64,000 bases of DNA from Elusimicrobiaceae bacterium. GTDB taxonomy: Bacteria > Elusimicrobiota > Elusimicrobia > Elusimicrobiales > Elusimicrobiaceae. The stretch is from contig JAZUSQ010000021.1 in NCBI GenBank assembly GCA_045606825.1, forward strand, positions 86,706 through 150,705, in the 5' to 3' direction. The notes beneath the pieces are model-generated. The model worked only from the letters and a program-made list of their open reading frames with translations. It was not told the origin of the DNA and did not search any database. Position numbers and translations under genes: made by a program. Numbering within the stretch: position 1 is the first letter of the stretch; the number at the start of each line of letters is the position of its first letter. Shown here piece by piece: positions 7,698 through 55,532 of the stretch.

Positions 7698-8342
7698 TTA
7701 ATAATTATATACCAAGAAAGAAGTCCCTGTTTCATCCGCTTCACTCTTTCCGGTTTCAAGTTTACACAAGCGGGCTCCCCTAGAATTGGTGTTTGTACTA
7801 GCACCTAAGACACATTTATGTTTTCCAGGATCTCCTTTTTTTCTATGTATGGTATTTATTTGATACATTAACCCCTCACTTCCTTTTGGACAATAACAAC
7901 CAGATTGTTCGGTCCCTGCAAAACAAGAAACAGAGTTACCATCAACCTCCACTTCCAAATCCGCAATATTATTGGCATAGTATCCGTTGGCTAAATAATA
8001 TACTTCTTGCGCCTGAGCTATAGCTTTGGCTGCCATTTTCGCTTGCGTAAAACGGCTCTTCAGTACAGCCATTTGATACTGCGGCAACGCCACCGCCGCC
8101 AAAATGCCAATGATGAGAACAACGACCAACAGTTCAATGAGGGTAAACCCGCCGGTATTTAATAAGCCCGTCATCCCGTATTTGATACGGGATCTCACTT
8201 TAGACAATAAAAAGCGGTGAGATTCCAAGACCCCGTACAAAAACATTACGGGGCGGGGCCAAAGGTAATGCCCCGATTTGGAATGACAATTTTTATTTAT
8301 TACTAGGTGCGTATTACCCCGCCGGGTATTTTGGTTGTTCAT
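7698..8342 (-). CDS. Type IV pilin (PilE-like) #1, with extended leader peptide
   Basis: [26 protein letters not shown]-methylation motif and Cys-rich C-terminus; about 60 extra residues before G|F. Confidence 0.92.
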   Translation of the reverse strand: MNNQNTRRGNTHLVINKNCHSKSGHYLWPRPVMFLYGVLESHRFLLSKVRSRIKYGMTGLLNTGGFTLIELLVVVLIIGILAAVALPQYQMAVLKSRFTQAKMAAKAIAQAQEVYYLANGYYANNIADLEVEVDGNSVSCFAGTEQSGCYCPKGSEGLMYQINTIHRKKGDPGKHKCVLGASTNTNSRGARLCKLETGKSEADETGTSFLVYNY

Positions 8343-8612
8343 ACGTTTTCCTCACTCTCTTAAATTCAATTTGTCCGTTTGGAAAACGCACCCATAAAAC
8401 AACGGCTGCATAGCCCCATGAATTATCACACCCATGAAACACAAACAGCCGCAGCTCTCCGCAAAACGGAAAACATTTGGCGCAAGATAAACGGGTAATT
8501 AGTCCGTTTCCCTTGCACCCGATTGGGTTGTTTCTGGAGTGATAATTGTTGCCCTTGGCAACGGTGCCTTTCGGCTTCCAAAAACAGATTAAATTGTATC
8601 TATAGTATAATA
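8343..8612 (-). ncRNA. Conserved structured pilin 5' leader, copy L1
   Basis: TTATTATACTATAGATACAATTTAATCTGTTTTTGGAAGCC...CGGCTGTT...CAGCCGTT...AAATTG...GAGG..ACGTATG blocks shared with eight other copies. Confidence 0.7.
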
Positions 8613-8742
8613 AAAAAATCCGTTTGCGACAAGAAGAAACACAGCAAACCCTGGCCTTTTAAACTGAATTGGTAAAATTTTATAGAATTAAGGTTGTTAG
8701 ATAACATTGCAATATATTTATGGGATATGGGGTTATATACGT

Positions 8743-9588
8743 ATGAAAAAACTAATGCTAGCCGTTTGTTTGTTGGCCCCTATGGGGGCCTATGCCGCCC
8801 AGCCGGCCGCTACTGTGGCTGTGCTGGCTTACTCGGCAGATGAACTGGCCGCCAAATTTGCAGGCAAGAACCGCAAAGAGATAGTGGCCGCCATTACCAC
8901 CATCCCCGTGTATGAACAAACTTTTACCGCCGCGGACGGCACCGAATACGAGGCCGTGCGTTACGGCAAAACCAACCAGGACTACCGCTTATTTTTGTAT
9001 AAGTTTGCCTGGCCGCAACCGCTGGTAGGGGTGGTTGAGAATGCCAAAGGGATTTTGGCTCTCAATGCACGTTATCAGATTGACATCCCGCTGACCGAGC
9101 AAGACATTGCCAAAAACACATCCGCCGCCACGCTAAGCACCGTTACCGACGTAGGCAACAACCGTACCTATAACGTTTATCAAAATGGTAGTGAGTTCTT
9201 GCTCTTTCATAACGGTGTGTTGGTGCAACAGTTTGACAACGCGCAAGATTATGCCGCTTTTATGGCTACGCTAACCGCCTCTAATTCCGCCTATACGGCC
9301 GAGCAAGCCCAAGAGCAAACCGCGCTGGAAAATGCCCGGCTCAACCAACAAAAAAACTATTATACGCGCCCGCGCTCTTATTGGGCCCCGGTGGTAGGCA
9401 CGGCTTTATTGGGTGGACTGGTATGGGGGAGCGTGTATCATCATAATCACCACCGCCACCGCCATCATGCGGCCCCGCCCCCGGCACCGCACCACCGCCC
9501 CGGGCATTTAAAACCGTTGCGGCCCGGCGGACCGCCGCCCGGTACCCCTCTCATACGTGACGTAAACGGCAGATTTATGCACCGCTAA
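8743..9588 (+). CDS. Hypothetical exported protein with His/Pro-rich C-terminal tail
   Basis: Signal peptide MKKLMLAVCLLAPMGAYA (ATG 8743 preferred over the track start 8707); tail HHNHHRHRHHAAPPPAPHHRPG. Confidence 0.7.
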   Translation: MKKLMLAVCLLAPMGAYAAQPAATVAVLAYSADELAAKFAGKNRKEIVAAITTIPVYEQTFTAADGTEYEAVRYGKTNQDYRLFLYKFAWPQPLVGVVENAKGILALNARYQIDIPLTEQDIAKNTSAATLSTVTDVGNNRTYNVYQNGSEFLLFHNGVLVQQFDNAQDYAAFMATLTASNSAYTAEQAQEQTALENARLNQQKNYYTRPRSYWAPVVGTALLGGLVWGSVYHHNHHRHRHHAAPPPAPHHRPGHLKPLRPGGPPPGTPLIRDVNGRFMHR

Positions 9589-9689
9589 AACTTAATGAAC
9601 TTCCCCCGGCTTACGCCGGGGAAATTGTGCACAACAAGATTAAAAAGCCCCAACAAATTGTTAGGGCTTTTTAATTTTTAAAACTACAT

Positions 9690-11150
9690 TTATTTGTTTT
9701 TATTTTCGTCCAACGCGCATTTCACTTTGGGGCTGTTGGCCACCAGGTCCTTAATAGGCTTAATCACTTGCGCTTGGGGTTTTAATGTGCATGGGCCGCC
9801 AATGCAACCGCCTTTGCAATTCATCACTTCCAACAGTTGAAAATCCCCCGCACCTTTGGCAAATGCCGTAAGCAAGGCCATGGCTTTTTTATCCAAGCCG
9901 TTAATGGCCATTTTCTTGAACGGCTTTTTGCCGGCAATGGCATTTTCTACCGCTTGGGCTACGCCACCGGTTACGCCGTAGTAGCGGGCCTCGCCTGAGA
10001 TGGCAGGGTCCAAAGGCATTTCTTCACATTCGGCCGGGTTAATGTGTTTGGCATCAAACAAGGCTCCCAATTCTTCGTAAGTCATCACATAATCAATGTT
10101 GGGGTCTTCCATCCCTTCCGCCCGTTTGGATACACACGGCCCTACAAACACGGTTACATGGCCTTTTTGTTTTTCCAGTTCGGCGGTATAAGCGGCCGGG
10201 GTTTTGGTGTGCGAAACAAATTCTTTCAGCGCGGGCAAGTGTTTGCGTACGGCACGCACCCAGGCCGAACAACAAGAAGTGGTCATAAACCGCGCACCGT
10301 TTTCCAACCGTTCCACCAGTTCGCGCGCTTCGTTAGCGGTGGTAATATCGGCCCCCAGGGCAACCTCCGTTACCAGCGGGAAACCGGCTTTTTTGATAGC
10401 CGTCATTAACTGGGGCAAGGTACAATCAAACTGCCCCACAATAGACGGCGCAATCATAGCCACCACTGGGGCCCCTTTTTTGATTTGGCCCAAAATGTCA
10501 ATTAACTGGCTACGTTCCATAATGGCCCCAAACGGACAGGCTTCCATGCAATGCCCGCAGGAAATACACTTGTCAAAATCAATTTCCGCTACACCGTTTT
10601 CCCCTTTGTGGATAGCATCTACCGGGCAAGCCTGTTCACACGGAACCGGGATAAAAGTAATAGCATTGTACGGACAAGCCATTTTGCACGCACCGCAATT
10701 TTTGCATTTATCTGCATCAATAAACGAACGTCCGTCAATAAAACTGATGGCCCCAAATTTACACGCCTGTTGGCAAGGGCGTGCTAAACAACCCTGGCAA
10801 GCCTCGGTTACCATGTGGCGGGCCTTGCGGCAACCATGGCAGGCAATATCCATAACCGTCAGCGGCAGTTGCGGAATTTGTGTACGGGTAAGGGCCTTTT
10901 TGGCGTAATCATTTAGCGAAGTTGCCTCGTCATCTTCTTCCACACTGCACCCCAAAGCGGCCAATGTGCGGGCACGAAATACGGCGCGCTCTTTGTAAAT
11001 ACAACAACGCACGGAGGATTTGGAATCTTGCGGGATAACATCATAAGGAATGCGGTAGGCTTCCGTTTCTAGGGAGTTTTTATCAAAGGCTTCAATAATT
11101 TTGCGAAGCGCGGTACGTCTGAAATAAATGGCTTTATTGTCTGAGTTCAT
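9690..11150 (-). CDS. Monomeric [FeFe]-hydrogenase-family protein with N-terminal 4Fe-4S domains
   Basis: H-cluster motifs TSCCSAW (L1), GPCVSKRAE (L2) and EVMNCKGGCIGG (L3); several CxxCxxCxxxCP ferredoxin motifs. Confidence 0.88.
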   Translation of the reverse strand: MNSDNKAIYFRRTALRKIIEAFDKNSLETEAYRIPYDVIPQDSKSSVRCCIYKERAVFRARTLAALGCSVEEDDEATSLNDYAKKALTRTQIPQLPLTVMDIACHGCRKARHMVTEACQGCLARPCQQACKFGAISFIDGRSFIDADKCKNCGACKMACPYNAITFIPVPCEQACPVDAIHKGENGVAEIDFDKCISCGHCMEACPFGAIMERSQLIDILGQIKKGAPVVAMIAPSIVGQFDCTLPQLMTAIKKAGFPLVTEVALGADITTANEARELVERLENGARFMTTSCCSAWVRAVRKHLPALKEFVSHTKTPAAYTAELEKQKGHVTVFVGPCVSKRAEGMEDPNIDYVMTYEELGALFDAKHINPAECEEMPLDPAISGEARYYGVTGGVAQAVENAIAGKKPFKKMAINGLDKKAMALLTAFAKGAGDFQLLEVMNCKGGCIGGPCTLKPQAQVIKPIKDLVANSPKVKCALDENKNK

Positions 11151-11212
11151 ATGGCTTATATTTTAGCATATTTGATGTAACTCCACCCGGTGCAAATTTG
11201 AAAGAAATTATG

Positions 11213-11495
11213 TAGAATGAAAGAGAAGTAAAAACACAATTTTATCCTGTTTTTGGAAGCGTTTAAGAAACGCGAACCCGAAAGGGGGCTAGTTACTCCA
11301 AAAACAACGGCCGATCAGGCATAAGAGCACGGACCTTCGAAACCCGTATTCTTATGCCGAATGTTTATCGTTTTGACGGTAGGCTACGGTTGTTGTATTT
11401 ATGTTCTGTAACTAGCCCATAAGTACAAGCAGCCGTTTCTTTTATATGCGTTTCCTGGGACGGATAAGTTGGAAATTAAAACAAGAGGTGAACGT
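11213..11495 (+). ncRNA. Conserved structured pilin 5' leader, copy L2 (most divergent 5' end)
   Basis: ACAATTTTATCCTGTTTTTGGAAGC...TCCAAAAACAAC...GCCGAATGTTT...CTACGGTTGTT...CAGCCGTTT...GGATAAGTTG...AAGAGGTGAACGTATG. Confidence 0.7.
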
Positions 11496-12014
11496 ATGAA
11501 CCAAAACAATACCCGGCGGGGTTTTACGCTTATTGAGTTGTTAGTAGTGGTGCTCATCATTGGCATTTTAGCAGCCGTGGCCCTGCCGCAATACCAAAAA
11601 GCAGTTGTTAAATCCCGCGTTGCGAGTATTTTACCCATTGTTAACACCTTAAGGAATGCAGAGGACGTTTATTATTTGACAAATGGAAATTACACACATG
11701 CTATTCAGGATTTAGACGTGGCTATCCCTTGTATTGAAACCTTTGAGGATGATACATATCATCCATATTGGCAATGTGGAGATGTTTTTTTAGTACAAGT
11801 TAGTGATACTGGTTCTTATGCAAGCTACTGTCCAGGACATAATGATACGGTTGCAACATGCAAGCAACACAGAGATTTTCAAATAGCTTATAACTATTCA
11901 CGTATAGGTGGAAGACGATACTGCATAATTAAAAATGATAGTTCATTGGGAGAGTCTATTTGTAAAACAATAGGGCAAGCTACAAAGATACTAGGTGAGT
12001 ATCTCATCAGGTAG
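11496..12014 (+). CDS. Type IV pilin (PilE-like) #2
   Basis: [37 protein letters not shown]; ATG 11496 follows an AAGAGG RBS. Confidence 0.93.
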   Translation: MNQNNTRRGFTLIELLVVVLIIGILAAVALPQYQKAVVKSRVASILPIVNTLRNAEDVYYLTNGNYTHAIQDLDVAIPCIETFEDDTYHPYWQCGDVFLVQVSDTGSYASYCPGHNDTVATCKQHRDFQIAYNYSRIGGRRYCIIKNDSSLGESICKTIGQATKILGEYLIR

Positions 12015-12079
12015 AGAGTACAAAAGATTATGCTGATACATGCCCCCAAATTTTCCAGGGGGCATTTTCTACTAAAACC

Positions 12080-13459: not shown

Positions 13460-13523
13460 AACAAATCCTTACGTAACAAAAAAAGCGGCAGGATAATTCC
13501 CGCCGCTTTTACTGGCCAAAAGT

Positions 13524-13898
13524 TTATTTGTCCGCTTTTTTGGCAGCCGGTTTTTTGGCGGCTACTTTTTTAGCGGGAGCCTTGGCGGCTTTGGGGGCCG
13601 CGGCTTTTTTAGCAGGCTCTTTTTTGGCTTGTTTGGTTTCCGCAACTTTGGGGTACACGGAAATTTGTTGTTTGCCTCTTCTTACCCATTCAAAGGTAAC
13701 AATGCCGCTTACGCGGGCAAAGAGGCTGTCGTCGCTGGCGCGGGAGACGTTGGTTCCAGGCAGGAACTTAGTACCGCGCTGGCGGACGATAATTTCCCCA
13801 GCGTTTACAAACTGGGAGCCGTAACGTTTAATACCTAAACGTTGGCCGTGGCTGTCTCTTCCGTTAGAGGAAGAACCTTGTGCTTTTGTATGTGCCAT
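13524..13898 (-). CDS. rpmA: 50S ribosomal protein L27 with Lys/Ala-rich tail
   Basis: [24 protein letters not shown]. Confidence 0.97.
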
Positions 13899-13914
13899 GG
13901 TTTATTCTCCCAAT

Positions 13915-14223
13915 TTATAACTGGATATCCGTGATTTTAATTTGCGTTAAGTTTTGTCTATGGCCCTGGGTGCGTTCGTACCCTTTTTTGGGGCGGCGTT
14001 TATAGACAATCACTTTTTGACCTCTCAAATGTTTTACCACTTGAGCGGTGACCTTGGCAGCCTTGGCTGCTTTGGTATCTGCTGAGGTACCTTCTTCGTT
14101 AGCGGCCCAAAGAACTTTCAGTTCTACCTTGGCACCTACTTCCGCGTCCAGCTTTTCAACCTGCAGATCTTGACCGGGTTTTACCCAGTACTGTTTTCCA
14201 CCAGTTTCAATAATTGCGTACAT
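13915..14223 (-). CDS. rplU: 50S ribosomal protein L21
   Basis: MYAIIETGGKQY...GHRQNLT. Confidence 0.97.
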   Translation of the reverse strand: MYAIIETGGKQYWVKPGQDLQVEKLDAEVGAKVELKVLWAANEEGTSADTKAAKAAKVTAQVVKHLRGQKVIVYKRRPKKGYERTQGHRQNLTQIKITDIQL

Positions 14224-14353
14224 AAGTTTAACTCACTAATCGGCGCGTTTTTAACAGCGCGCTCTTTAGCTCTTATATTATAGCATAAAATACAACATGA
14301 GGGGAAGGAGAAAAATTCTTACCCTATCTCTTCCCCGATTTGTTATAAATATA

Positions 14354-14845
14354 TCAAGGGCGTGAAGCCCGATCACAATCGCCTAATTGTTTGGTAAAGC
14401 CCAATTTGGAAACCTCGAAATTAAACAAACTATTTGTAGAGGCATATAATTCTCCCAGAACAGGATGGTATCTACCACACAAAATTCGATCCCTCAGATA
14501 AATCTGGAATAACTGCGAGGTCCCACAACACTTGGTGGGAACCGCGTAAGAAACATACCCGTAATTAGAAACATAATATTCGCAAGATGAAATTCCTGGT
14601 AGAGCAATACATTCGGGAATTTCAATATCCAGTTGGGATATGTCCGTAGCGTATTCATCATGCTCTAAATAATATCTTGCTTGCGCTTGCGCGATTGCGT
14701 GCAAGTTGGTTTCAATTTCCGCAAAGCGCGCTTTTTGTACTGCCTTGTTATACTGTGGCAGGGCCACCGCCGCCAATATCCCAATAATTAACACCACTAC
14801 TAACAACTCAATGAGGGTAAACCCTCTTTTTCTTTTGTACTGCAT
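14354..14845 (-). CDS. Type IV pilin (PilE-like) #3
   Basis: [31 protein letters not shown]. Confidence 0.93.
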   Translation of the reverse strand: MQYKRKRGFTLIELLVVVLIIGILAAVALPQYNKAVQKARFAEIETNLHAIAQAQARYYLEHDEYATDISQLDIEIPECIALPGISSCEYYVSNYGYVSYAVPTKCCGTSQLFQIYLRDRILCGRYHPVLGELYASTNSLFNFEVSKLGFTKQLGDCDRASRP

Positions 14846-15113
14846 AACATCCTCCTAAGTTTAATTTCCAATTTACCTGCCCTCGGAGTTGCACGCAAAA
14901 ACGGCTATCCGCCTTGCAAATCATTACCCTTGCAAAACAAACAGCCGCAGTTTCCTTATTTTGTATTACAAAACGGAAACATTGGGCACACAGGGATGGC
15001 CGTCCCTATGTGCCTTTCAGTCGGCTATTTTTGGAGTAATGATTGTTGCTTGGCAACAGGACCTATAAGTATAGGCTTCCAAAAACAGATCAAATTGTAC
15101 TGATAGTATAATA
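14846..15113 (-). ncRNA. Conserved structured pilin 5' leader, copy L3
   Basis: TTATTATACTATCAGTACAATTTGATCTGTTTTTGGAAGCC...CCAAAAATAGCCGA...GCGGCTGTT...TAGCCGTTTTTG...CAGGTAAATTG...AGGAGG. Confidence 0.72.
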
Positions 15114-15157
15114 AAAAAGGGCCCGTTTTTCAACGGGCTACAAGTTACAAAACCTTG

Positions 15158-16273: not shown

Positions 16274-16302
16274 AATGATGTATTACCTATATTTTAGCAA
16301 AT

Positions 16303-16329
16303 GTAGCACTCGTTGTGTTAGCATGCTAA
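16303..16329. promoter_or_regulatory. CIRCE-like HrcA operator upstream of dnaJ
   Basis: GTAGCACTC-N9-GCATGCTAA versus consensus TTAGCACTC-N9-GAGTGCTAA; lies next to a TGcTAAAAT -10 element on the minus strand. Confidence 0.7.
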
Positions 16330-16330
16330 A

Positions 16331-18849: not shown

Positions 18850-18852
18850 GTG

Positions 18853-22893: not shown

Positions 22894-22944
22894 CGATAGT
22901 ACAAACTATTTTTGTATAAAAAGGCTGGTAAAAACCGGCCTTTT

Positions 22945-23229
22945 TTATTATACTATGGGTACAATTTGTTATCTGTTTTTGAGCCGTATGTAGAATACGG
23001 GATTGCTTAATCAGCACTCGTCGAAGTCAAAAACAACCACAATGAGGTGCAATGGGACCGTACATCCTGTTGCGCCGAATGTTTGCCGTCATAAGATGGC
23101 AGGCTACGGTTGTTATATAAGGTATCTTCGACGAGGCCCCAAATAGCAGCCGTTTTTGCATGCGTTCTTCAGAAGCGGAACAAATTGAAATTATAGGTTG
23201 GGTGCAACCCAACGTTAAAAAGGAGACGT
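22945..23229 (+). ncRNA. Conserved structured pilin 5' leader, copy L4
   Basis: TTATTATACTATGGGTACAATTTGTTATCTGTTTTTGAGCCG...GGTGCAATGGGACCGTACATCCTGTTGCGCCGAATGTTT...CTACGGTTGTT...CAGCCGTTTTTGCATGCG...AACAAATTG. Confidence 0.72.
23193..23213 (+). repeat. GTAG-family REP-like palindrome inserted between the leader and the RBS
   Basis: ATAGGTTGGGTGCAACCCAAC; near-identical to GTAGGTTGGGTGTAAACCCA at 61063-61082. Confidence 0.6.
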
Positions 23230-24102
23230 ATGATGCAAAACAAAAATCAACCCGTCATTGCGAGGAGCACCGCGACGAAGCAATCTAATCAAAACAAAAA
23301 AGCCCGTCATTCCCGAGTGTTTTTATCGGAAATCTACAACGCATGCCGTTGTAAAATTAAGGGAAATTCCTTATTAAATAGGTACGTGGAAGATCCCCGA
23401 CAGAAACCCTCGGGGATGACATCTTGTGTTACAACAGCCCACGGCTTTACCGCCCGCGCCGTCACCCCGCAGGGTCGGTATGCGGGGTATAGCGGGCATC
23501 CCGGCTTTACCCTTATTGAGCTATTAGTAGTTGTCTTAATTATCGGTATTTTGGCGGCGGTAGCGTTGCCACAATACCAACAAGCCGTTATAAAAGCGCG
23601 TATAGCGGAGAAATTGACTGTTTCTAATACTTATCGTAAGGCTATTGAGTTATGGCTTCTGCAGAATGACTGGCCTGAAGAACGTATCATCTTGACGGGA
23701 TTTGGAAACCCTAACCAGGGCAGTTTAGACTTAGATCTCCCTGGGAGAACAACAAGCTCCAAGAGCTCGGTGGATAGTTATGGAGAAAGTTTATGGGTCG
23801 CGGCGTCGATAAGTAATACCGCGGCAACCGTATACGTTTTCTCGCCGTGTGATTACGAAACATGTGGTGAGAAATCTTGTGGTTTTAAGCTTGCTCGTTC
23901 CTTAGACAGTACATGGATGCTTGCTCCAATATTCACATTTTCCCGCGCCAGTGGCGGCGGCTTTAGCACGCCAACCGCTACGGAAGATCAATGTCCCAAA
24001 ACTAAAAAAATAATATGCCAGTATTGGGCTACACAGGGCAATGGGTTAAGTACTGCTAGCGCCAAAACACAATGTGCCCAGGTTGGCGTTACATTAAATT
24101 AG
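23230..24102 (+). CDS. Type IV pilin (PilE-like) #4, with ~95-aa leader peptide
   Basis: [29 protein letters not shown] preceded by in-frame palindrome-derived sequence. Confidence 0.9.
   Translation: MMQNKNQPVIARSTATKQSNQNKKARHSRVFLSEIYNACRCKIKGNSLLNRYVEDPRQKPSGMTSCVTTAHGFTARAVTPQGRYAGYSGHPGFTLIELLVVVLIIGILAAVALPQYQQAVIKARIAEKLTVSNTYRKAIELWLLQNDWPEERIILTGFGNPNQGSLDLDLPGRTTSSKSSVDSYGESLWVAASISNTAATVYVFSPCDYETCGEKSCGFKLARSLDSTWMLAPIFTFSRASGGGFSTPTATEDQCPKTKKIICQYWATQGNGLSTASAKTQCAQVGVTLN
23253..23511 (+). repeat. Cluster of in-frame REP/RPE-like palindromes in the pilin #4 leader peptide
   Basis: GTCATTGCGAGGAGCACCGCGACGAAGCAATCT; GTCATTCCCGAG...; AGATCCCCGACAGAAACCCTCGGGGATGAC; GTCACCCCGCAGGGTCGGTATGCGGGG flanked by a duplicated GGCTTTACC. 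Confidence 0.75.
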
Positions 24103-28526: not shown

Positions 28527-29036
28527 CTACCACGCCCGGCTGTCTACTTTGTCCCAATTTGCAGGAAGAAGGTTACAAATTTCCATCCCTTTATCCGTAC
28601 CTCCCAAACAATAATGAACTCCCCACCCCGTGTGTGGCCTACTCCCTTCAACGAATAGAACGCAATCACTCCCATACGACACCCCAATTTGAGGGCCTAT
28701 ACTCTCATTAAACACGCTATATGTCCAATCTTTGGTTTTGCAATATCCCCCTTCGCAAGAAACAAAGGGAATATCTATATCTAATACACCTTCCTGTAAA
28801 TAATCCCAAGAGACTTCCTTTCCCTCCAATTCTGCCAGATCAACGGCTTTTTTTAATGTGTCAATATTTGTGAGTGCTTCTGAGAGGCGCGCTTTCATAA
28901 CGGCTTTCTGATACTGCGGCAAGGCTACGGCCGCCAAAATACCGATAATTAGCACCACTACTAATAGTTCAATGAGCGTAAAACCTTTAGGTAAACCTCT
29001 TTGCGTTTCTCCCCGCTGGGAAATTTTCAACTTCAT
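28527..29036 (-). CDS. Type IV pilin (PilE-like) #5
   Basis: [25 protein letters not shown]...; ATG 29036 follows GGAGG. Confidence 0.92.
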
Positions 29037-29310
29037 TTTTACATCCTCCAGTTTTGTTAATTTCAATTTCCTCTGTCTGAAAAACGCATGTAAAAACGGC
29101 GGTTGTACCGGGCCTCATTCACAAAACCCCATACAACAGCCGTAGTCTCCCTTCTTGCCAGGCAAAAAGGGAAACATTAACACACAAGAGGAGCGCTCCC
29201 CCTTGTGTGCCTACTACCGACTGTCTTTTGGCGTGAATGAGCACCTTGCGGTGTTCCGTATTCCACATACGGTTCCAAAAACAGATAAAATTGTACCTAT
29301 AGTATAATAA
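29037..29310 (-). ncRNA. Conserved structured pilin 5' leader, copy L5
   Basis: TTATTATACTATAGGTACAATTTTATCTGTTTTTGGAACCGTATG...CCAAAAGACAGTCG...CTACGGCTGTT...CGCCGTTTTTACATGCG...CAGAGGAAATTG. Confidence 0.72.
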
Positions 29311-29392
29311 AGTTCCGCCGCAAAAACAAGCATTCATTTGCACGTATTTTTTGTTTTTGCTATAATAAAATTATAATTGAAGTTATTTTGAT

Positions 29393-35868: not shown

Positions 35869-36354
35869 TCATTGTTTTAAATAGTCACAAGCGACGGCAC
35901 CTTCTTCATTGCCTAAACAATCCAGGTACCAACCATTTGAATTTGGGGTTTTTTCTATCATTAAGTCCATTTTATCACCAGCAAAATTGAGAACGCAACC
36001 CACATAGTCATTGCTATTCTCACACATCCAGCCCGTGAAGTAAGGACTGTCTCCTTTATAATAGTTTATAAGTTCTTGTGTTTTTATTTCATCAAACCCA
36101 ATCGTTAATTCCTTCTTCGGGAAAGTTTCATCTCCTTCTCCCAAAAAAGTAACATTTTCATACCCATGTTCCAGCACGTATAAATCAATGGCTTTTTTAT
36201 AGGCATCCACCATGGATACAAGCTTAACGGCTCGCGCTTTATACACCGCTTTTTGATACTGTGGCACGGCTACCGCCGCTAAAATACCGATAATCAGTAC
36301 AACTACTAACAACTCTATAAGCGTGAAACCCCGCCGGGTGTTTCTTGTTGTCAT
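35869..36354 (-). CDS. Type IV pilin (PilE-like) #6
   Basis: [37 protein letters not shown]. Confidence 0.93.
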   Translation of the reverse strand: MTTRNTRRGFTLIELLVVVLIIGILAAVAVPQYQKAVYKARAVKLVSMVDAYKKAIDLYVLEHGYENVTFLGEGDETFPKKELTIGFDEIKTQELINYYKGDSPYFTGWMCENSNDYVGCVLNFAGDKMDLMIEKTPNSNGWYLDCLGNEEGAVACDYLKQ

Positions 36355-36629
36355 ACGTTTTCCTCTTTGTGTTTAATATGCACAATTCTTCTCCATCACT
36401 GAAAACGCATGCAAAAACGGCTACCACCGTTGTGTCTGTCTGAAGTCACAACAATAACAGCCGTAGTTTCCCGTCATAGACGGGAAACACTCGGCGCAAC
36501 AAGATGTACGGTCCTGTTGCACCTAATTTCGGCTATTCTTGGACTCAGACAGAACTTGGTTTTTCCAAATACTCCGTATTCCGCATACGGTTCCAAAAAC
36601 AGAATCAAATTGTATCTATAGTATAATAA
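36355..36629 (-). ncRNA. Conserved structured pilin 5' leader, copy L6
   Basis: TTATTATACTATAGATACAATTTGATTCTGTTTTTGGAACCG...CCAAGAATAGCCGA...GGTGCAACAGGACCGTACATCTTGTTGCGCC...CTACGGCTGTT...TAGCCGTTTTTGCATGCG. Confidence 0.72.
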
Positions 36630-36680
36630 AAAAGACTGGTAAAAACCAGCCCTTTTTATTGTACACTTTTGAAAATTTTT

Positions 36681-39364: not shown

Positions 39365-40024
39365 CTACGGGTAAATATACCAGGTTCCGTAGGCATTTGA
39401 AAAATCGGCCTGCGTTTTGAGGGTTTCACGTTGGCAGAACTTTACTGCTGCATTTGTCTTTGCCCCACAAACTTGTTTACCTGCAAATGAACGGAATTGA
39501 GAATACGTATTATCTTGTAAAAGCCAACTTTGAAGTGATGCAGATAGGTCAGAAATAAAAAGAATAATACGCGGAGCTGCATCAAATTGCCGGTCAATAA
39601 GAGAAATTTCTCCCCAATCAAACTGATATGTTCGGTGGCCGTTGCCTAAACTTGTTACTTGAATGGGTGTTTCTGAGAAATCAACATTTAAGTTGTTAAT
39701 ATCGGGAGTATATTCTCCATTCTCTAAGTAATAGAGTTCTTCGGCTCTTGCTAACGCTACTGCTAACATTTTATAACGGCTGTATTTGCTTTTTTCTACG
39801 GCTCGTTGGTACTGCGGTACGGCTACGGCGGCTAATATGCCAATAATGAGTACCACTACTAAGAGTTCAATGAGCGTAAAACCCATTAAATTAGGTGTCA
39901 TCCCGTACTTGATACGGGATCTTCCACGCACGTTGTTAACAAACAGCAACGACAAGCGTTGAAGATTCCAAATCAAGTTTGGAATGACTTTATTATTTTT
40001 CACATGTTTTTTTCCTTTCTTCAT
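39365..40024 (-). CDS. Type IV pilin (PilE-like) #7, with extended leader peptide
   Basis: MKKGKKHV...VIPNLIWNL...[19 protein letters not shown]; ATG 40024 follows AGGAG. Confidence 0.92.
   Translation of the reverse strand: MKKGKKHVKNNKVIPNLIWNLQRLSLLFVNNVRGRSRIKYGMTPNLMGFTLIELLVVVLIIGILAAVAVPQYQRAVEKSKYSRYKMLAVALARAEELYYLENGEYTPDINNLNVDFSETPIQVTSLGNGHRTYQFDWGEISLIDRQFDAAPRIILFISDLSASLQSWLLQDNTYSQFRSFAGKQVCGAKTNAAVKFCQRETLKTQADFSNAYGTWYIYP
39897..39988. repeat. Inverted REP doublet (REPIN-like), in frame in the pilin #7 leader peptide
   Basis: GTCATCCCGTACTTGATACGGGATCT (39897-39922) and AGATTCCAAATCAAGTTTGGAATGAC (39963-39988). Confidence 0.8.
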
Positions 40025-41079: not shown

Positions 41080-41319
41080 GATTTTAGGGCAGTTGGCGCA
41101 GCGCTTGTAACACAAAGTACGTCCGCCATGCGGACCGCGCAACGCGAGCTAACGCCTAGTAGTAAGTAGTAGTAATTTGAGTTTTACGATTTTAGGGCAG
41201 TTGGCGCAGCGCTTGTAACACAAAGTACGTCCGCCATGCGGACCGCGCAACGCAAGCCAACACCTAGTAGTAAGTAGTAGTAATTTGAGTTTTACGATTT
41301 TAGGGCAGTTGGCGCAGCG
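41080..41319 (+). repeat. 108-bp tandem repeat (two full units plus a partial third) containing the tRNA-Val 5' end
   Basis: Units start GATTTTAGGGCAGTTGGCGCAGCG at 41080, 41188 and 41296; the third continues as the real tRNA. Confidence 0.9.
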
Positions 41320-41374
41320 GTAGCGCGTCCGCCTCACACGCGGAAGGTCACAGGTTCAAATCCTGTACTGCCCA
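41303..41374 (+). tRNA. trnV: tRNA-Val(CAC)
   Basis: GGGCAGT...TCCGC-CT-CAC-AC-GCGGA...GGTTCAAATCC...ACTGCCCA. Confidence 0.94.
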
Positions 41375-45767: not shown

Positions 45768-45814
45768 CTTTTTGCATATACTCCTTGTTCCCCGGTTGCT
45801 AATACCGGGGTTTT

Positions 45815-46100
45815 TTATTATACTATAGGTACAATTTGATCTGTTTTTGGAACCGTACGAAGAATACGGATGGCTTTGGATAAAAGCGATGAGGTACTCC
45901 AAAAATAGCCGATAAAAGCACGATACTAATGAGTTGATCCCTCGGCAGTATTGTGCTGAATGTTTGTCGTTTTATTAAAATGGCAAATTACGGCTGTTTT
46001 TGTGGAGCATGTGCCTCATCCTCTATCAAACCAGCCGTTTTTGCATACGTTTTCAGGGATGGAGAAGAATTGTGCATATTAAACACAAAGAGGTAAACAT
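45815..46100 (+). ncRNA. Conserved structured pilin 5' leader, copy L7
   Basis: TTATTATACTATAGGTACAATTTGATCTGTTTTTGGAACCG...CCAAAAATAGCCGA...TACGGCTGTTTT...CAGCCGTTTTTGCATACG...GAATTGTGC. Confidence 0.72.
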
Positions 46101-46664
46101 ATGACAACAAGAAATACCCGGCGGGGTTTCACGCTTATAGAGTTGTTGGTAGTTGTACTGATTATCGGTATTTTAGCGGCCGTAGCACTGCCGCAATACC
46201 AAAAAGCGGTGGATAAGGCACGGGCAAGTGAGTTGTTTGCTATCGTGAAAAATATAAAAGTACAACAGGAAGTCTTTTATTTAGCCAATGGGCACTATGC
46301 CGCCGATTGTGAAGAACTGGAGGCCGATTTGCCCAGCGGGTTTGAAAAGAGGGAAAATAGTACCATTTATGATTTAGTAAAAGGAAATTATAAAATTAGT
46401 TTACGCTGTAAAAACGGAAATAATCCGCGGATTATGGGTCAATTGAATGCGGAGTCGTTACATGTAGCTATAGAAGCTTTTTTTGATCATTATGCGGATG
46501 AAGATGTAGCCGATAATATAGACACAGGACAGCAAGGCAGAGCGTTTTGTTATTTTCAATACTATGATTCTGCTACTGGTTCTTATCCCATTAATGAGCG
46601 AGGCGGTGCGGTGTGTAAGTCTTTGGGGAAAGAAAAAAGGGACAAGGGTAGTTACTGGCTATAA
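46101..46664 (+). CDS. Type IV pilin (PilE-like) #8
   Basis: [37 protein letters not shown]. Confidence 0.93.
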
Positions 46665-46806: not shown

Positions 46807-46856
46807 AATAAAAACAATACTCCCGACGGTAAAATCCCCCAAGAGAGCTAAGCACC

Positions 46857-48502: not shown

Positions 48503-48526
48503 ATTTTTAACGAAAGGAGAAGTAGT

Positions 48527-50392: not shown

Positions 50393-50513
50393 GTTCCGGT
50401 TTTACGGAAACTGATAAGTCAGAAAACTCCCCGGGCATGAGCCTGGGGAGTTTCATATCAGAAAACCAATAAACATTTCCTGTGCCTGCAGCATAGCCGG
50501 AAGACAAGGTTTC

Positions 50514-53500
50514 TTAGTAAGCCGGGGCAGCCGTTTCTTCTGTTGAAGCAGTTGTGTTATTATCCCCCGGTTGGTTGTGTTTTATTAGGTGGCGGATTTT
50601 ATCTTTTAAATTTTTACCCCAGTATTTGACGGCTTGCACCATGCTGGAGTTTGCCAACATCCCCGGGGTTAAAGCCACACTACCCGCCAATGCCACCCCG
50701 CATAAGGCCATATCCAACCCCGGGATTGCTTCCAGTGCCCCGGATTTTAAGGCCCCTACCGGCAAGGCCGCCAACGGCATAGTATAATTGATAAGTAAAG
50801 CAATTTCACGTTTATATTTGGGGTACAATCCAATCATATATTCATACATTTGCGAGAAGAAATTGCTAATTCCAAAACAGGCGGTGATAGCCCCGCCTAC
50901 CAAAAGCCCCATGTTGCCGGACTGCATAGCCAGGGCCATTAGAGCCGGGCCTGCTATGCTGGCCGCAGAAGATAGCGCATACATACTGCCCCCGCTCATG
51001 CGTTGGCTTAATACGTTACCCACAATACGCCAACCAAACATACAACCGTATAGCAAAATTCCTACAATCCCTGTAGCGGCGGTACCTTCGCCAACCAGTT
51101 CCCGCATGGCAAACGCTAATCCGTTGGAAAGACCTAACTCGCCAAATGTAGCCAATGTCATAGCGGCCAAGGCAGGTGGCAAGCCTTTCATAGCCGCTAC
51201 CTTATACCACTTTACATCACGCCGTCCCAACACATCAAACGCTTGTTGTAAGTAGTGGTGGGCCGCTTGGGCTTCGTTCCGGGTACGGCCGGCCAATAAA
51301 AGCAAGTTTTCTAATTCCTCACCTACTTCAGCCTCGTGTTTGAGGGTTAAACCGTTAATCCCAGTTTTTTGTTTACGCGCCTCTACAGATACCAAGGCAT
51401 CAATGGCCCCTTTTAATTGTTTAGCCGCATTTACTAATACAGGATGCTGGGCCGTTAAATCTGCTGGGGCCACTTTTGAAATTTCTACCGCCATGTTATT
51501 TTGCAAATCCTGTAAATTATTATTCAGTACGGTTTGGTTCATGGGGAAGGCATCTTTATAGCGCGTTTTATATACTTTTCGCAATGTGTACAAACTATAC
51601 AATGTATAAGGCACATAACTGGCAGAAAAATCTAACCCCAACTCTACCCCCACGGCTTTACCTGCCAAATTGGCTAACCACGGAAAGGACAAGAAAAGCA
51701 TCGTTCCTAAGTTTTTAAACATAGCCCCGCGCTGGTAGTAAACTACATCCCGCAAGGATTTAGTGGATTTTTTAGTAGCCACCTCCCATGCACGTTTGGC
51801 CAAGTGTTTGGCATTATATACTACCGGTTTCTCTTGAACTGTTTCGGCCTGTTTTTGAAATGAATTTACTTGCGGCACAATACCGCGGTTAGCACTGATA
51901 AGTAAGTTTTGTACAAAACGGGTGATGTTGGTTCCCAAGGCAATGAGCACACTAGAGGTTAAAAACCCGGCCAGTTGCCAATTTGTCATCAATCCGCCAA
52001 TATGCCCATAAAGCCCGCTGGCTAGCGCAATCAACCCCCCGGCACTAAACATGGCCGCCCCCACGCGGAAAACAGCGGCCTCGCCGTATTGCTTAAGCAA
52101 CGGATGCACCAACCCCATTAGCGCGGGGAGTACGTTGTTAATGCCCAGCATAATGTTACTGGCATCATCTTTACCTAAGGTGGACATATCGTGTAAAGCG
52201 GGTGCTAATGTTTTACCCAACCCAATTTGTTCCCCGGGTACTAAATAAGTAACAGGAACCATTTTGTCCATAGTGGAAAGTACACGCAGATTAAATTGGG
52301 TATCGGGGTACATCTCAAAAATTTGTGTCCAATATTTGCTTTCTGCTTTAGGCAGGCGGATAAAAGCATCTGCCAGTTCTGTGACTGTTCCATCTTGTGC
52401 TTGGAAATACAAGGACGAACCGTTATACCAAATACGTCCGTTTTGAGGGTTGTTAATACCACTTAACAAGGCCGCATCTACTTCTGCCACCAGGGCAGTT
52501 TCTTCTAGCGAAGGGCCTACTACTTGTAGGGTAATAGCCGCTTTGGGAGCCCCTGTTTTTTGAATTTTGATACGCAACGGCCGTGCCAATTGTAAAGTTT
52601 GTGCCCCCTCTATCAGTTTGGCAAATTCCCCGTTTTGGATAGACAGGGCAAAGTAGAAATGGTCCGGCCGTTTGGCAGGCACCGTTTGGTTCCGCAGTTC
52701 AAAGTAATGGTTAGTGTCTAAGGCCAAGCGGTTATATTCCGGCGAGAAATTTTTAAGAGAAGAACTAACTGTCAAGTCCACATTATGCAAAATATGCTCT
52801 ACTTTGTCTTCCCCTTCCACGGTTAGTTTAAATCCGTCCACTCCTACCGGCACACTGCCCATATCATTATCGGCACCACCCAAATCGCCGCCAATTTGTG
52901 CCTGGGCCGGGATTTCAACCTCTGCATACACCGGGCGGATGTGGCGGTCGTGCAAGCCGGGTTCTTCGTACGGGGCAGGGGAGTGTGCATCCTTTTTAAA
53001 TTGGCGGCGCAACCATTGTGCAGCCCGTTTACCGGCATCTGCGATAGCAAATACGGGAATGCCACTATACACAATCCCACCGGAAGCGGTACTGCGTGGG
53101 GCAGCAACGGCAGAAGCAGGTTGTGTTTGAGAGGCTTGGGTAAGATGTGTTGGAACAGACAAAACAAGCGGTGTGGTGCCCGCCAAAGAAACGGCAGTGG
53201 CCGCAGGCGTGTGAGCCGTTACAGCGGACGGCCACGCTATTTGTTGTAAACTTAACCATTCCCGGGTGGCTGCTAATGAACCGTCCGCGTGAAGTTCATG
53301 CGGCAAGAAAGTTTGACCCAAAAAAGCGGCTAATGAATCATTAGCCGCCGGTTGGGTAAAATTAAATTGCGCCGGGATTTCTACGGGTAAATGATTTTCT
53401 AGCACATACGCCGCTGTTCCGGCCAAAATTTGCGGGTTTTCTACCTGGGTAAATAATTGGGCTAATTCTTCATATGCCCCCATACGCAAACAACCACGGG

Positions 53501-54104
53501 CCGCAATTAAAGCGGCAGTATCAGCAAATGCAGTGTTTTTGGCAGACTGGTAAAATGCCACCAATGTGGCGGCTTGTTCGCGCGGGGCTAACAACGCCAG
53601 GGCCGAAGCATCCGCTAACACATTTTGCACGGCTTGCACGTTGCGGGCGGTGGGATGCGTGGCGGCATAGGTCAAAAATTCAGGCAGGGACATTTGTACC
53701 GCTTGTAAGGCAGAAACTTGTGCAGTTAATTGTGTGTTATAAAAGGTAATGGCTTGTGCGCGTTGGGCATCTGTTACGGCTTGCGGCAACAAAGAAAGGG
53801 CTACAAAATCGGTACGCAATAAAGCCTCGCGTTGGGCGGCAGGACTGGTTAAAATATAGTGGGAAAGACCTTCAATTTGTCCGGTGGCAATACGGCTTTG
53901 CAAGGTACTGTTTGCAAAAATACGTTGGGCAAGCACACCCCGGTTTAAAGCGGCAGAGAAAGAAGATGCAGACACACGGGTCCCGGTAGCGGATAGCCCC
54001 TTTAAATTAGCAAGACTGCGGCCCGCCCGGATTTGCCCCATGGCGGGAGTAATGCTACTGCATACAATACTAACGCCCAGTACCAGCGATAGTAACTTCT
54101 TCAT
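50514..54104 (-). CDS. 1196-aa membrane protein: exported Ala-rich N-terminal region fused to an MFS-like transporter region
   Basis: Signal peptide and about 600 aa of soluble sequence, then two bundles of TM helices (about aa 640-830 and 970-1160) separated by a helical insert. Confidence 0.6.
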   Translation of the reverse strand: MKKLLSLVLGVSIVCSSITPAMGQIRAGRSLANLKGLSATGTRVSASSFSAALNRGVLAQRIFANSTLQSRIATGQIEGLSHYILTSPAAQREALLRTDFVALSLLPQAVTDAQRAQAITFYNTQLTAQVSALQAVQMSLPEFLTYAATHPTARNVQAVQNVLADASALALLAPREQAATLVAFYQSAKNTAFADTAALIAARGCLRMGAYEELAQLFTQVENPQILAGTAAYVLENHLPVEIPAQFNFTQPAANDSLAAFLGQTFLPHELHADGSLAATREWLSLQQIAWPSAVTAHTPAATAVSLAGTTPLVLSVPTHLTQASQTQPASAVAAPRSTASGGIVYSGIPVFAIADAGKRAAQWLRRQFKKDAHSPAPYEEPGLHDRHIRPVYAEVEIPAQAQIGGDLGGADNDMGSVPVGVDGFKLTVEGEDKVEHILHNVDLTVSSSLKNFSPEYNRLALDTNHYFELRNQTVPAKRPDHFYFALSIQNGEFAKLIEGAQTLQLARPLRIKIQKTGAPKAAITLQVVGPSLEETALVAEVDAALLSGINNPQNGRIWYNGSSLYFQAQDGTVTELADAFIRLPKAESKYWTQIFEMYPDTQFNLRVLSTMDKMVPVTYLVPGEQIGLGKTLAPALHDMSTLGKDDASNIMLGINNVLPALMGLVHPLLKQYGEAAVFRVGAAMFSAGGLIALASGLYGHIGGLMTNWQLAGFLTSSVLIALGTNITRFVQNLLISANRGIVPQVNSFQKQAETVQEKPVVYNAKHLAKRAWEVATKKSTKSLRDVVYYQRGAMFKNLGTMLFLSFPWLANLAGKAVGVELGLDFSASYVPYTLYSLYTLRKVYKTRYKDAFPMNQTVLNNNLQDLQNNMAVEISKVAPADLTAQHPVLVNAAKQLKGAIDALVSVEARKQKTGINGLTLKHEAEVGEELENLLLLAGRTRNEAQAAHHYLQQAFDVLGRRDVKWYKVAAMKGLPPALAAMTLATFGELGLSNGLAFAMRELVGEGTAATGIVGILLYGCMFGWRIVGNVLSQRMSGGSMYALSSAASIAGPALMALAMQSGNMGLLVGGAITACFGISNFFSQMYEYMIGLYPKYKREIALLINYTMPLAALPVGALKSGALEAIPGLDMALCGVALAGSVALTPGMLANSSMVQAVKYWGKNLKDKIRHLIKHNQPGDNNTTASTEETAAPAY

Positions 54105-54513
54105 AGCTCCTCCTTTCTTATATGGTTATAATTTTCAAGCCCAAAAAACAGGGCCAAAAGTCCTATTTTTAAATTCCTTTTGGCCCTATCAATAACTTCC
54201 CAAATTGTGCACTGCAGATATATAGAATAGGTTGCAGTTTGGATATTTTTAAAACAATGTGAAAATAATGTGAGGAAAAAAGAGAGTAAATTGAAAATAA
54301 AGAAGGCGTCCCTCCGCGTTTGTGGCTTTTGCCGCTGAGGTAAGCACTGACACACAAATTGGTTTGCGCAGTACTGATACATAACAGTTTAACCTTCTCC
54401 ATCTATATGGTACGAAATTTAGCAACCGCACGCAAAGGGAAAAAGGACCTATTTTGCGGATAGGTCCTTTGGATTAGAAACGGCTCATTTTTGCTTGTTT
54501 TTAGAGGTAAAGT

Positions 54514-54791
54514 TTATTATACTATAGGTACAATTTTATCTGTTTTTGGAACCGTATGTAGAATGCGGCAGAATTTTGGGAAATCCAAAATTGTGTGCGA
54601 CGCCAAAAATAGCCGAACTAGGTGCAATGGGACCGTACATCCTATTGCGCCGAGTGTTTTCCGTTTTCAAACGGAAGGCCCGGTTATTGTAAATGGGGGT
54701 GGTCGCACAGTCCCAAATATGATAGCCGTTTTTGCATGCATTTTCTGGGATGGAGAAAAATTGTGCATATTAAACACAAAGAGGGGAACGT
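54514..54791 (+). ncRNA. Conserved structured pilin 5' leader, copy L8
   Basis: TTATTATACTATAGGTACAATTTTATCTGTTTTTGGAACCG...CCAAAAATAGCCGA...GGTGCAATGGGACCGTACATCCTATTGCGCC...CGGTTATT...TAGCCGTTTTTGCATGC...AAAAATTGTGC. Confidence 0.72.
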
Positions 54792-55532
54792 ATGAACAAA
54801 AGAAATACCCGGCGGGGGAGTACGCAAACAGAAAATGTAGTTCAAAAAAATAAAGTCATCCTGAATTTAATTCTTCCACGCACATTGTTACACCGGTATC
54901 AAAGAAACGACAAGCGTGGAAGATGCCGTATCAAGTACGCCGTGACGGCTCTATGTAACAACAACCGGGAGACGGGAGATCCCCGATTACGACTTTCGGG
55001 GATGACACCCAATTGGATAGCGGCGCGCGGGTTTACCCTTATTGAACTGTTGGTAGTGGTGCTGATTATTGGCATATTAGCGGCGGTGGCCCTGCCGCAG
55101 TATAACAAGGCCGTGTGGAAAGCCCGCGTAACACAGGCCCTGGTGTTTATCTCCGCCATAGAAAAAGCCGGGCAAGCCTATGTACTGGAAAACGGATATC
55201 CGGCTCTAGGGAAAGAAGCCATTTCTCTACTAGGGGCCAACTCCCCACTTGCCTTGGATTTATTTCCTGCCAGCGCATGTGATGATGATATCTGCACTGA
55301 TAACTATTTTGCCTATGTTGCGGAAGTGTATACTCCTATTGGAAAACGTTCACATCTAGAATGGACTGTACGCCTGCAAGAGGATCCTATAGATTCTTTC
55401 TTCTCTTGCGTCATTTATGCTGACGGAACGTCTGATTGTGCGTGCTGGTATAGAACGCCTCGTGCTCAAACAGTATGTGAATTACTGGATGCAAGGGAGC
55501 CCAATAAATATACCTTGCACAACGCAATGTAG
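54792..55532 (+). CDS. Type IV pilin (PilE-like) #9, with ~80-aa leader peptide
   Basis: MNKRNTRRG + palindrome-derived insert + [10 protein letters not shown]. Confidence 0.92.
   Translation: MNKRNTRRGSTQTENVVQKNKVILNLILPRTLLHRYQRNDKRGRCRIKYAVTALCNNNRETGDPRLRLSGMTPNWIAARGFTLIELLVVVLIIGILAAVALPQYNKAVWKARVTQALVFISAIEKAGQAYVLENGYPALGKEAISLLGANSPLALDLFPASACDDDICTDNYFAYVAEVYTPIGKRSHLEWTVRLQEDPIDSFFSCVIYADGTSDCACWYRTPRAQTVCELLDAREPNKYTLHNAM

Follow-up and report, generated by a model that had tools for sequence, protein, structure and literature searches.

Why do some pilin genes encode leaders that are made of palindromic DNA? The typical leader of a class III signal peptide is short and basic, with a length of 5-30 aa. 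Prepilins insert with this leader on the cytoplasmic side of the membrane, and at the cytoplasmic face an A24 prepilin peptidase cuts after the glycine at position -1 (G-1), relying mainly on that glycine and on the hydrophobic segment that follows it. We analyzed a stretch of 64,000 nt from an Elusimicrobiaceae bacterium (GenBank assembly GCA_045606825.1, contig JAZUSQ010000021.1, positions 86,706 to 150,705; hereafter the window), in which four pilin genes carry long leaders of a different kind. The window is part of a 1.56 Mb genome (46.6% GC, 43 contigs, assembly completeness 93%; G000 in the coordinates below). Across this genome, hairpin-repeat modules lie between a strong Shine-Dalgarno (SD)-bearing ATG and the G/F cleavage-site codons in 63 of ~191 pilin genes, about one third of the family. 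We consider it fairly probable that these leaders result from the serial insertion of non-autonomous elements into pilin leader DNA, with the encoded peptide being removed by the peptidase.

Hairpin modules between the start codon and the cleavage site

A six-frame scan of the window returned 10 pilin-like N-termini of nearly invariant sequence: five with leaders of 7-8 aa, one with a leader of 17 aa, and four with leaders of 64, 91, 47, and 79 aa (pilins #1, #4, #7, and #9, respectively; Table 1). The four long leaders bear out the initial annotation of this DNA, which had described four leaders of 45-95 aa built from in-frame palindromes upstream of G/F. That annotation had also counted six short leaders; five of these are canonical, and the sixth, the 17-aa leader, contains a degenerate second cleavage-site motif. 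Each of the four window inserts has a length that is a multiple of 3 and is free of stop codons. The peptides VIPNLIWNL, RIKYGMT, PRQKPSGMT, and VIARSTATKQS, which had been singled out as translated palindromes, are indeed GTCAT-stem-loop-stem-ATCT units or their reverse complements. Two corrections concern the palindromes themselves: the left hairpin of #1 is interrupted by a small palindrome nested in its loop, and #9 has degenerate left-hand units.

The long leaders begin in the same way as the short ones. Their SD and ATG are normal, the first residues are often those of a normal leader (MNNQNTRRG..., MNKRNTRRG...), and the SD strength of the upstream ATG matches that in short-leader genes. 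The 5′ untranslated region (UTR) and start of pilin #9 are 84% identical to those of the short-leader gene at 46101, and the distance from the promoter/5′ UTR motif to the ATG is equal in long- and short-leader genes. The homologous 5′ UTR and start, together with this fixed distance, show that the extra DNA sits between the ancestral start codon and the G/F codons.

With the regular expression used for the window scan, we identified 189 pilin-like N-termini genome-wide. Taking the most upstream SD-supported ATG as the leader start, leaders of ≤12 aa are found in 103 genes; in 61 genes the leader is not of the short, basic kind but measures 22-126 aa and is built from recurrent modules. Two additional pilins with one motif substitution were missed by the expression and recovered among the "non-pilin" repeat sites, bringing the family to ~191 genes. 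The features of a class III signal peptide (G-1, F or M at +1, E+5, and a hydrophobic helix of ~20 residues) are present in 10/10 window genes and in the 189 genomic matches, and PF07963 (N_methyl) is recorded for the pilin #4 protein and its homologs in a public protein collection. The genome encodes an A24 prepilin peptidase (PF01478 match of 76.6 bits at G000:C19:37383-37724, within a 278-aa open frame). Because such a peptidase depends mainly on the glycine and the hydrophobic segment, a stop-free extension upstream of G-1 should leave the mature protein unaltered, and we predict from the sequence that leaders of 50-126 aa are cleaved by this enzyme.

The reading frame from the SD-bearing ATG to G/F is stop-free in 61/61 long leaders and in both additional pilins (63/63). 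The initial description of palindromic, mobile-type inserts that keep the frame and lie upstream of G/F therefore holds genome-wide. By comparison, reading the inserts in the +1 frame leaves 2/61 open and in the +2 frame 1/61 (3/122 in total), with ~4 stops each on average, so that the openness of the actual frame far exceeds chance expectation. A BLAST search with the insert library against all upstream regions of the short-leader genes found no out-of-frame repeat between the SD-bearing ATG and GFT, with three genes ambiguous owing to truncation at a contig end. In two genes only, the same search located an element just ahead of the SD, within the 5′ UTR.

The basic unit of the inserts consists of GTCAT, an 8-bp covarying stem, a loop, the second strand of the stem, and ATCT. 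We took every 26-mer of the form GTCAT-N17-ATCT in the genome, whether or not it could pair, which gave 45 distinct sequences. In this set, 93.9% of the cells in the 8-bp helix are paired and six of the eight pairs show compensatory changes (CCTGAA with TTCAGG, CCCGTA with TACGGG, GCTGAA with TTCAGC, TCCAAA with TTTGGA, and GGCAGA with TCTGCC, among others), and 0/500 shuffles were as good. Units usually occur as inverted pairs around a spacer, giving elements of about 45-160 nt (90-160 nt for the inverted-pair palindromes), and there are several element families that differ in stems, spacers, and lengths. The A-type element, at ~135 nt, has the form GTTATAAAAAATAAA-GTCAT-hairpin-ATCTTCAACGC...GCGTGGAAGAT-hairpin-ATGAC-nTCTTTATTTAATAAC, and an alignment of its copies reveals terminal inverted repeats of ~45 nt (GTTATAAAAAATAAAGTCAT...ATGACnTCTTTATTTAATAAC).

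In some GTCAT hairpins, a small palindrome is inserted in the loop (…GACCCCGTA…TACGGGGTC… or GGCC…GGTAATGCC; window 8220-8287, G000:C21:199385, and G000:C31:7144), so that hairpin loops themselves seem to be integration targets.

Junctions, mobility, and genomic distribution of the inserts

The left breakpoint is identical in 33 long leaders, reading ...ACC CGG CGG GGN NNN ACG C/AA..., where the slash marks the breakpoint; the empty site of short-leader genes reads ...ACC CGG CGG GGT TTY ACG C/TY ATW GAG. The right boundary always lies directly at GGN TTY ACN. Internal copies of the cleavage-site DNA, GGNTTYAY, number 33 in 28/67 leaders, compared to 2.4 ± 1.6 in shuffled sequences (maximum 8), which is an excess of ~14-fold, and 31/33 of these copies are in frame. 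A gene on contig C30 of G000 contains four successive G-F-T copies with an element after each, and every copy of the C-type mini-palindromes has GGYTTYACC on both sides. Within the window, we recovered the flanking duplications already noticed in the initial annotation, with GGCTTTACC occurring twice in #4 (23443 and 23503) and AATACC(C)GGCGGG at both ends of the #1 insert (8330 and 8159, minus strand). Together, these junctions suggest targeted insertion at the cleavage-site DNA with a target duplication of ~9 to >14 nt.

Conservation of the short leader N-T-R-R-G-F-T extends to its DNA and even to synonymous positions (AAT ACC CGG CGG GGT TTY ACG C; window 11505-11530, 46110-46135, 36320-36345, and others). 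Its segment ACCCGGCGGGGT is nearly palindromic, and in long leaders the old F codon varies while CGGCGGGG and ACGC are invariant. This pattern suggests that the short-leader DNA either is under constraint at the nucleic-acid level or represents a recognition site.

The inserts are also far more alike than the genes that carry them. Insert copies are 80-97% identical, whereas most mature domains of the paralogs have diverged beyond alignment and N-terminal synonymous sites are near saturation. Among 1,770 gene pairs, we found no correlation between the similarity of two inserts and the identity of the 90 nt directly next to them (Spearman -0.06 overall and -0.03 at third positions). One 157-nt element is 94-97% identical in three genes in which the adjoining third-position identity is 0.30-0.43 (background 0.43). 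Since near-identical inserts adjoin saturated third positions and the two similarities are uncorrelated, these data argue for recent and independent arrival of the elements and against duplication or long-tract conversion. The divergence of the mature domains also meant that no close paralog pairs with and without an insert were obtained. The ortholog of #4 in another species (P0045, mature part 63% identical) has a different leader of 31 aa, and in relatives a single leader cassette precedes mature domains that are unrelated to each other, indicating that both turnover and some recombination occur.

Repeats homologous to the leader inserts amount to 17.9 kb within leader open reading frames (ORFs). 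They occupy 63 genes within the ~5 kb of pre-insertion leader target, about a dozen loci within the ~153 kb of DNA outside ORFs of ≥100 aa, and 1-3 loci within the ~1.3 Mb of other coding DNA, which amounts to an extreme enrichment in the leaders. Per kb, the element density in leaders is ~130 times that in intergenic DNA. Tolerance alone does not explain this distribution, because intergenic DNA should tolerate insertions at least equally. The initial annotation had viewed the cleaved leader as a neutral or regulatory landing pad for repetitive extragenic palindromic (REP) sequences. The positional part of this view stands, as the inserts always lie upstream of G/F, but the leader is not a passive sink for a genome-wide REP: the repeats are nearly confined to leaders, and the cleavage-site motif is duplicated.

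Outside the pilins, the clearest coding case is folC, whose C-terminal domain contains an in-frame C-type mini-palindrome (G000:C13:14726-14774, in the minus-strand ORF G000:C13:14560-15906, outside the window). In an alignment with solved FolC structures, this insert accounts for ~18 extra residues (APCVIPQGCNAGYKGRG). Some "intergenic" copies resemble orphan pilin leaders with no pilin body (e.g., MTIKNKVILNLIQDL...SLFNNGTCVEDAQQQPLSIRLI followed by a stop; G000:C27:25645-25814 and G000:C6:2586-2702) and may be remnants of decayed or rearranged pilin genes.

We hypothesize that small non-autonomous mobile elements composed of GTCAT-hairpin-ATCT units integrate repeatedly into leader-coding DNA through a postulated enzyme. 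Integration would take place at or beside the cleavage-site codons GGN TTY ACN C, with the motif duplicated on both sides. Because this duplication regenerates the target, further insertions could stack, producing (G-x-T + element)n followed by GFTLIELL. Only insertions that keep the frame and are stop-free would survive, because the gene is still translated from its original SD-bearing ATG. The extra 20-120 residues would be tolerable, since the leader of a class III signal peptide does not leave the cytoplasmic side, and the prepilin peptidase (PilD) would cut at the last G/F, the one followed by the hydrophobic helix and E+5, leaving the mature pilin unchanged.

A more far-reaching version of this model we offer tentatively and would not expect to hold in full. 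Here, the cleavage-site DNA (CGGCGGGGTTTYACGC) would be the specific target of pan-bacterial, unnamed GTCAT-stem-ATCT hairpins, and with the target regenerated at each insertion the leaders would grow serially, so that the cell would process signal peptides of 50 to >180 residues. The leader would provide a safe harbour in the coding DNA of a streamlined genome, and the insertions may secondarily drive cassette exchange or expression variation among the ~190 pilin genes.

Selection, spread, and start codon: weighing the alternatives

Several observations weigh against serial, targeted insertion. Exact flanking repeats are not general, with a longest-common-substring test lying only slightly above its shuffled control, and 28/61 leaders lack a left G-x-T-Q copy. 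Variable A-rich linkers separate ACGC from the first hairpin, and some elements may therefore have landed in an older, extended "platform" and not in the primary site. The ACGC/AA junction is common to several species, which fits one old event followed by later turnover as well as it fits site-specific reinsertion; an older shared platform with later turnover is possible. In addition, we found no transposase able to move the elements in the 93%-complete assembly. Finally, neutrality is an assumption of the model, and the 63 retained inserts could also reflect a benefit.

In the most probable of the alternatives, the inserts are kept for a function in cis. Hairpins in the first 100-400 nt of the coding region could tune translation or mRNA decay, or recombination or phase variation at the repeats could shuffle or silence the ~190 pilin cassettes. 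Consistent with this idea, the hairpin structure is strongly conserved, and the RNA of the #7 leader folds as one long hairpin (-46.3 kcal/mol, z = -4.6). The inserts are also present in one third of a very large, individually promoted pilin family and in several species, and the leader cassettes shared by unrelated mature domains in relatives mean that recombination does happen there.

To place these points in context, selection on the encoded peptide and on the RNA has to be considered. We compared seven A-type copies of equal length that share a reading frame: the insert diverges by 0.233/0.198/0.233 at codon positions 1/2/3, compared to 0.147/0.055/0.565 in the adjacent mature N-terminus. 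The forward hairpin is read in two frames, in 13 cases each, as VILNLIQDL or as CHPELVSGS/CHSRMSLSG, and the reverse-complement hairpin is read as ...GMT 26 times and as ...QDD three times, never in the TGA frame. As divergence is flat over the codon positions and the hairpin is read in several frames, selection is on the open frame and the DNA hairpin and not on the peptide. Non-Watson-Crick positions, taken in the mRNA sense, are G.U in 4 cases and A.C in 11, and therefore give no sign that pairing is kept in the transcript. This result leaves the earlier suggestion that the hairpins tune translation or mRNA stability without support. Module content, order, number, and orientation vary widely among genes, the same hairpins are ordinary intergenic repeats in many phyla, and two thirds of the pilins do without inserts. 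We consider a function in cis unlikely on this evidence.

Serial insertion can also be contrasted with a scenario that requires no transposition into individual genes. A few ancestral long leaders would have spread by duplication and by gene conversion or cassette exchange of pilin 5′ ends, with the frame kept automatically. As expected from such spread, 33 genes and other species share one left junction, RRG-x-TQ, the leader MQNKNQPVIARSTATKQS... occurs on unrelated mature domains in P0001-P0009, and the conserved 5′ UTR and N-terminal helix supply flanking homology. However, this scenario does not fit the absence of correlation between inserts and their adjacent 90 nt or the near-identical inserts that abut saturated synonymous sites, and the mature domains are too diverged for recent duplication. 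Moreover, every extra element brings its own extra GFT copy, and copies are also present in intergenic DNA and in folC. Spread without transposition into each gene appears quite improbable to us.

The inserts could also be 5′ UTR, with translation beginning near G/F (e.g., at the ATG in ...GGGATGAC) and the upstream in-frame ORF being incidental, a possibility that the initial annotation had raised against its own reading. An in-frame ATG derived from the element end ATGAC is present 2-20 codons before G in 24/61 leaders, and the resulting MTPNLTTAR/GFT looks like a normal short leader. However, these ATGs have no SD, and 37/61 leaders have no such ATG. An ATG, GTG, or TTG with an SD match of at least 4 nt within 25 codons of G is found in 15/61 leaders, which equals the background rate. 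An incidental ORF, furthermore, would not be open in 63/63 genes when the other frames are open in ~2.5%. We rejected a start at the ATG of the element on these SD and frame statistics, and a downstream start in general strikes us as very improbable; translation is predicted to run from the upstream ATG through the inserts. The 63/63 statistic provides a simple sequence-only argument for the start codon used in an uncultured lineage. An assembly artefact, with repeats mis-joined to pilin 5′ ends in a metagenome-assembled genome, can be practically dismissed, since contigs C3, C7, C29, and C38 do end within repeats but the inserts occur in 63 genes and recur in separately assembled genomes of other species, never out of frame and with sequence that differs from gene to gene.

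Source of the elements, relatives, and known systems

In searching for an enzyme that could mobilise the elements, we found no matches to TnpB, DDE_Tnp_1, rve, or IS110-type genes in G000. A single Y1 transposase gene is present (G000:C21:92-571), which is an IS200 equivalog (130.7 bits) and scores 31.7 bits with the model for REP-associated tyrosine transposases (RAYTs), against a cut-off of 80. This gene lies directly upstream of a long-leader pilin gene (L001 1-700 = G000:C21:1-700) and is flanked by CCCCCAG/CTGGGGG hairpins (GAACCCCCAG...CTGGGGGC) that bear no relation to the leader elements. We found Y1 genes in 21/61 sampled genomes of the genus and the A-type element in 6/18 genus genomes, and the presence of one does not track that of the other. 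The RAYT/TnpA(REP) gene whose presence the initial annotation had proposed to look for was not found in G000, the only candidate being the IS200-type Y1 gene. We rejected RAYT-driven REP mobility on the basis of this assignment, the unrelated flanking hairpins, and the lack of co-occurrence across the genus.

Relatives in the genus share the leader architecture (G008, MQKGNEV...RGRSRIKYGMTSLYNTPHLLCGHPLPQGARETAC/GFT; G009, MKRAFINKNHSRMFLSGIF.../AFT). Using the #4 leader alone as a query, we retrieved 44 public proteins, nearly all with PF07963, with modular leaders of up to ~185 aa. The exact 26-mer GTCATCCTGAAYTTRWTTCAGGATCT is present in >119 contigs, often as inverted pairs (L012-L130), from Patescibacteria, Bacteroidota, Alpha-, Gamma-, and Campylobacterota-type Proteobacteria, Spirochaetota, Melainabacteria, Firmicutes, and Elusimicrobiota. 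Most copies are intergenic (113/138 lie in stop-to-stop frames of <100 aa), the flanks are not conserved, and only one of the 138 copies is near a pilin motif. The hairpin is thus a widespread mobile unit; because elsewhere it is mostly intergenic, with that one copy near a pilin motif, its concentration in prepilin leaders is specific to this lineage.

Rfam scans yielded tRNAs alone at the gathering threshold and no credible match at the E-value threshold, and full-text literature searches found no description of the hairpin element or of in-frame leader insertions. The 26-nt hairpin, conserved letter for letter across very distant phyla and with no match in Rfam or in searchable papers, appears to be an undescribed and unnamed pan-bacterial mobile hairpin.

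In a few contigs (L031, L095, L105, and L116), the 26-mer lies in frame in large housekeeping ORFs, where it adds 9-10 residues (CHPELVSGS or ILKQVQDDK). These host ORFs include a 1255-aa glutamate-synthase-like protein from a Treponema metagenome-assembled genome, a RarA-like ATPase, an aminotransferase, and an alcohol dehydrogenase.

Among known systems, the Rickettsia palindromic elements (RPEs) come closest; these are palindromic repeats of ~100-150 bp that insert in frame in protein genes and leave a functional product (Ogata et al. 2000, as summarised in PMC10969869). RPEs are dispersed among unrelated genes, and the peptide they encode is conserved, whereas the leader elements cluster in a single short segment of one gene family (63 leaders compared to 1-3 other coding loci) and are read in several frames with no conserved peptide. 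RPE residues stay in the mature protein, while those of the leader elements are predicted to be removed by proteolysis. The leaders may therefore represent a natural example of selfish DNA in coding sequence whose encoded peptide is removed after translation.

REPs accompanied by a RAYT (REPtrons) resemble the leader elements: both are short hairpins whose 5′ motif is invariant and whose stems covary, and both often form inverted pairs. They differ in that the invariant REP motif is GTAG, compared to GTCAT...ATCT here, in that REPs are extragenic whereas most leader-element copies lie inside pilin ORFs, and in their association with a RAYT. Bacterial miniature inverted-repeat transposable elements with in-frame intragenic copies, such as ERIC, BOX, Correia, and the Anabaena elements, likewise have terminal inverted repeats and occasional in-frame fusion, as well as a flanking target duplication, for which the leader elements have an apparent counterpart (PMC10969869). 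For the leader elements, in contrast, no parent insertion sequence was detected in G000, the apparent target duplication is long (9 to >14 nt) and always of the same motif, and a single site class is occupied to an extreme degree (63/191 genes).

Type IVb and other long-leader prepilins have leaders of ~15-30 aa. They share the class III signal peptide, G-1, the hydrophobic helix, E+5, and the A24 peptidase with the pilins described here, whose leaders measure 22-126 aa (~185 aa in relatives) and consist of repeat DNA instead of a conserved leader sequence. If the predicted processing takes place, prepilin peptidases tolerate leaders many times longer than any described, which bears on how class III signal peptides are recognized. 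For gene calling, we note that the start codons of long-leader pilins are easily mis-set.

Table 1. Pilin genes, leader elements, and promoter-like blocks in the window (a slash marks the cleavage site in peptides and the breakpoint in DNA)
Feature	Positions	Strand	Details
Pilin #1, 64-aa leader	7698..8342; leader coding 8151-8342; SD-bearing ATG at 8342; G of G/F at 8150	-	MNNQNTRRGNTH...RSRIKYGMTGLLNTG/GFTLIELL; SD GAGGAAAACGT ahead of ATG
#1 right hairpin unit	8170..8195	-	AGATCCCGTATCAAATACGGGATGAC
#1 left hairpin unit	8220..8287	-	GTCATTCCAAA...TTGGAATCT; second palindrome nested in loop; same nested element in other leaders
#1 duplicated leader DNA	left copy 8318..8330; right copy 8148-8159	-	left copy AATACCCGGCGGG; right copy AATACCGGCGGG
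Pilin #4, 91-aa leader	23230..24102; leader coding 23230-23502; SD-bearing ATG at 23230; G of G/F at 23503	+	PF07963
#4 hairpin unit	23254..23286	+	GTCATTGCGAGG...GAAGCAATCT; read as VIARSTATKQS
#4 B-type palindromic element	23306..23420	+	left unit 23306-23335; right unit 23391-23420
#4 C-type mini-palindrome	23443..23511	+	hairpin 23461-23490; direct repeats GGCTTTACC at 23443-23451 and 23503-23511
Pilin #7, 47-aa leader	39365..40024; leader coding 39884-40024; SD-bearing ATG at 40024; G of G/F at 39883	-	
#7 A-type element	39897..39988	-	left unit 39963-39988; right unit 39897-39922; folds as single long hairpin
Pilin #9, 79-aa leader	54792..55532; leader coding 54792-55028; SD-bearing ATG at 54792; G of G/F at 55029	+	
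#9 degenerate A-type element and B-type right unit	54855..55006	+	A-type 54855-54946; B-type right unit 54977-55006
17-aa leader	28986..29036	-	degenerate second cleavage-site copy, no hairpin; putative "platform" or footprint state
Short-leader pilin	11496..12014	+	MNQNNTRR/GFT; empty site ...CGGCGGGGTTTTACGC/TTATTGAG
Short-leader pilin	46101..46664	+	MTTRNTRR/GFT
Short-leader pilin	35869..36354	-	MTTRNTRR/GFT
Short-leader pilin	60169..60660	-	MQKRNTRR/GFT
Short-leader pilin	14354..14845	-	MQYKRKR/GFT
Promoter-like blocks	8573-8617, 15074-15118, 22918-22970, 29270-29314, 36589-36633, 45788-45884, 54487-54583, 60884-60928		

Two further observations concern the surroundings of the pilin genes. 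Upstream of almost every pilin gene lie a conserved promoter-like block (…AAATTGTA.CTATAGTATAATAAA) and a 5′ UTR of ~250 nt that is likewise conserved. Elsewhere in the window, a 108-nt unit is present in two tandem copies that are 97% identical (41080-41295), directly upstream of a tRNA gene (41303-41374).

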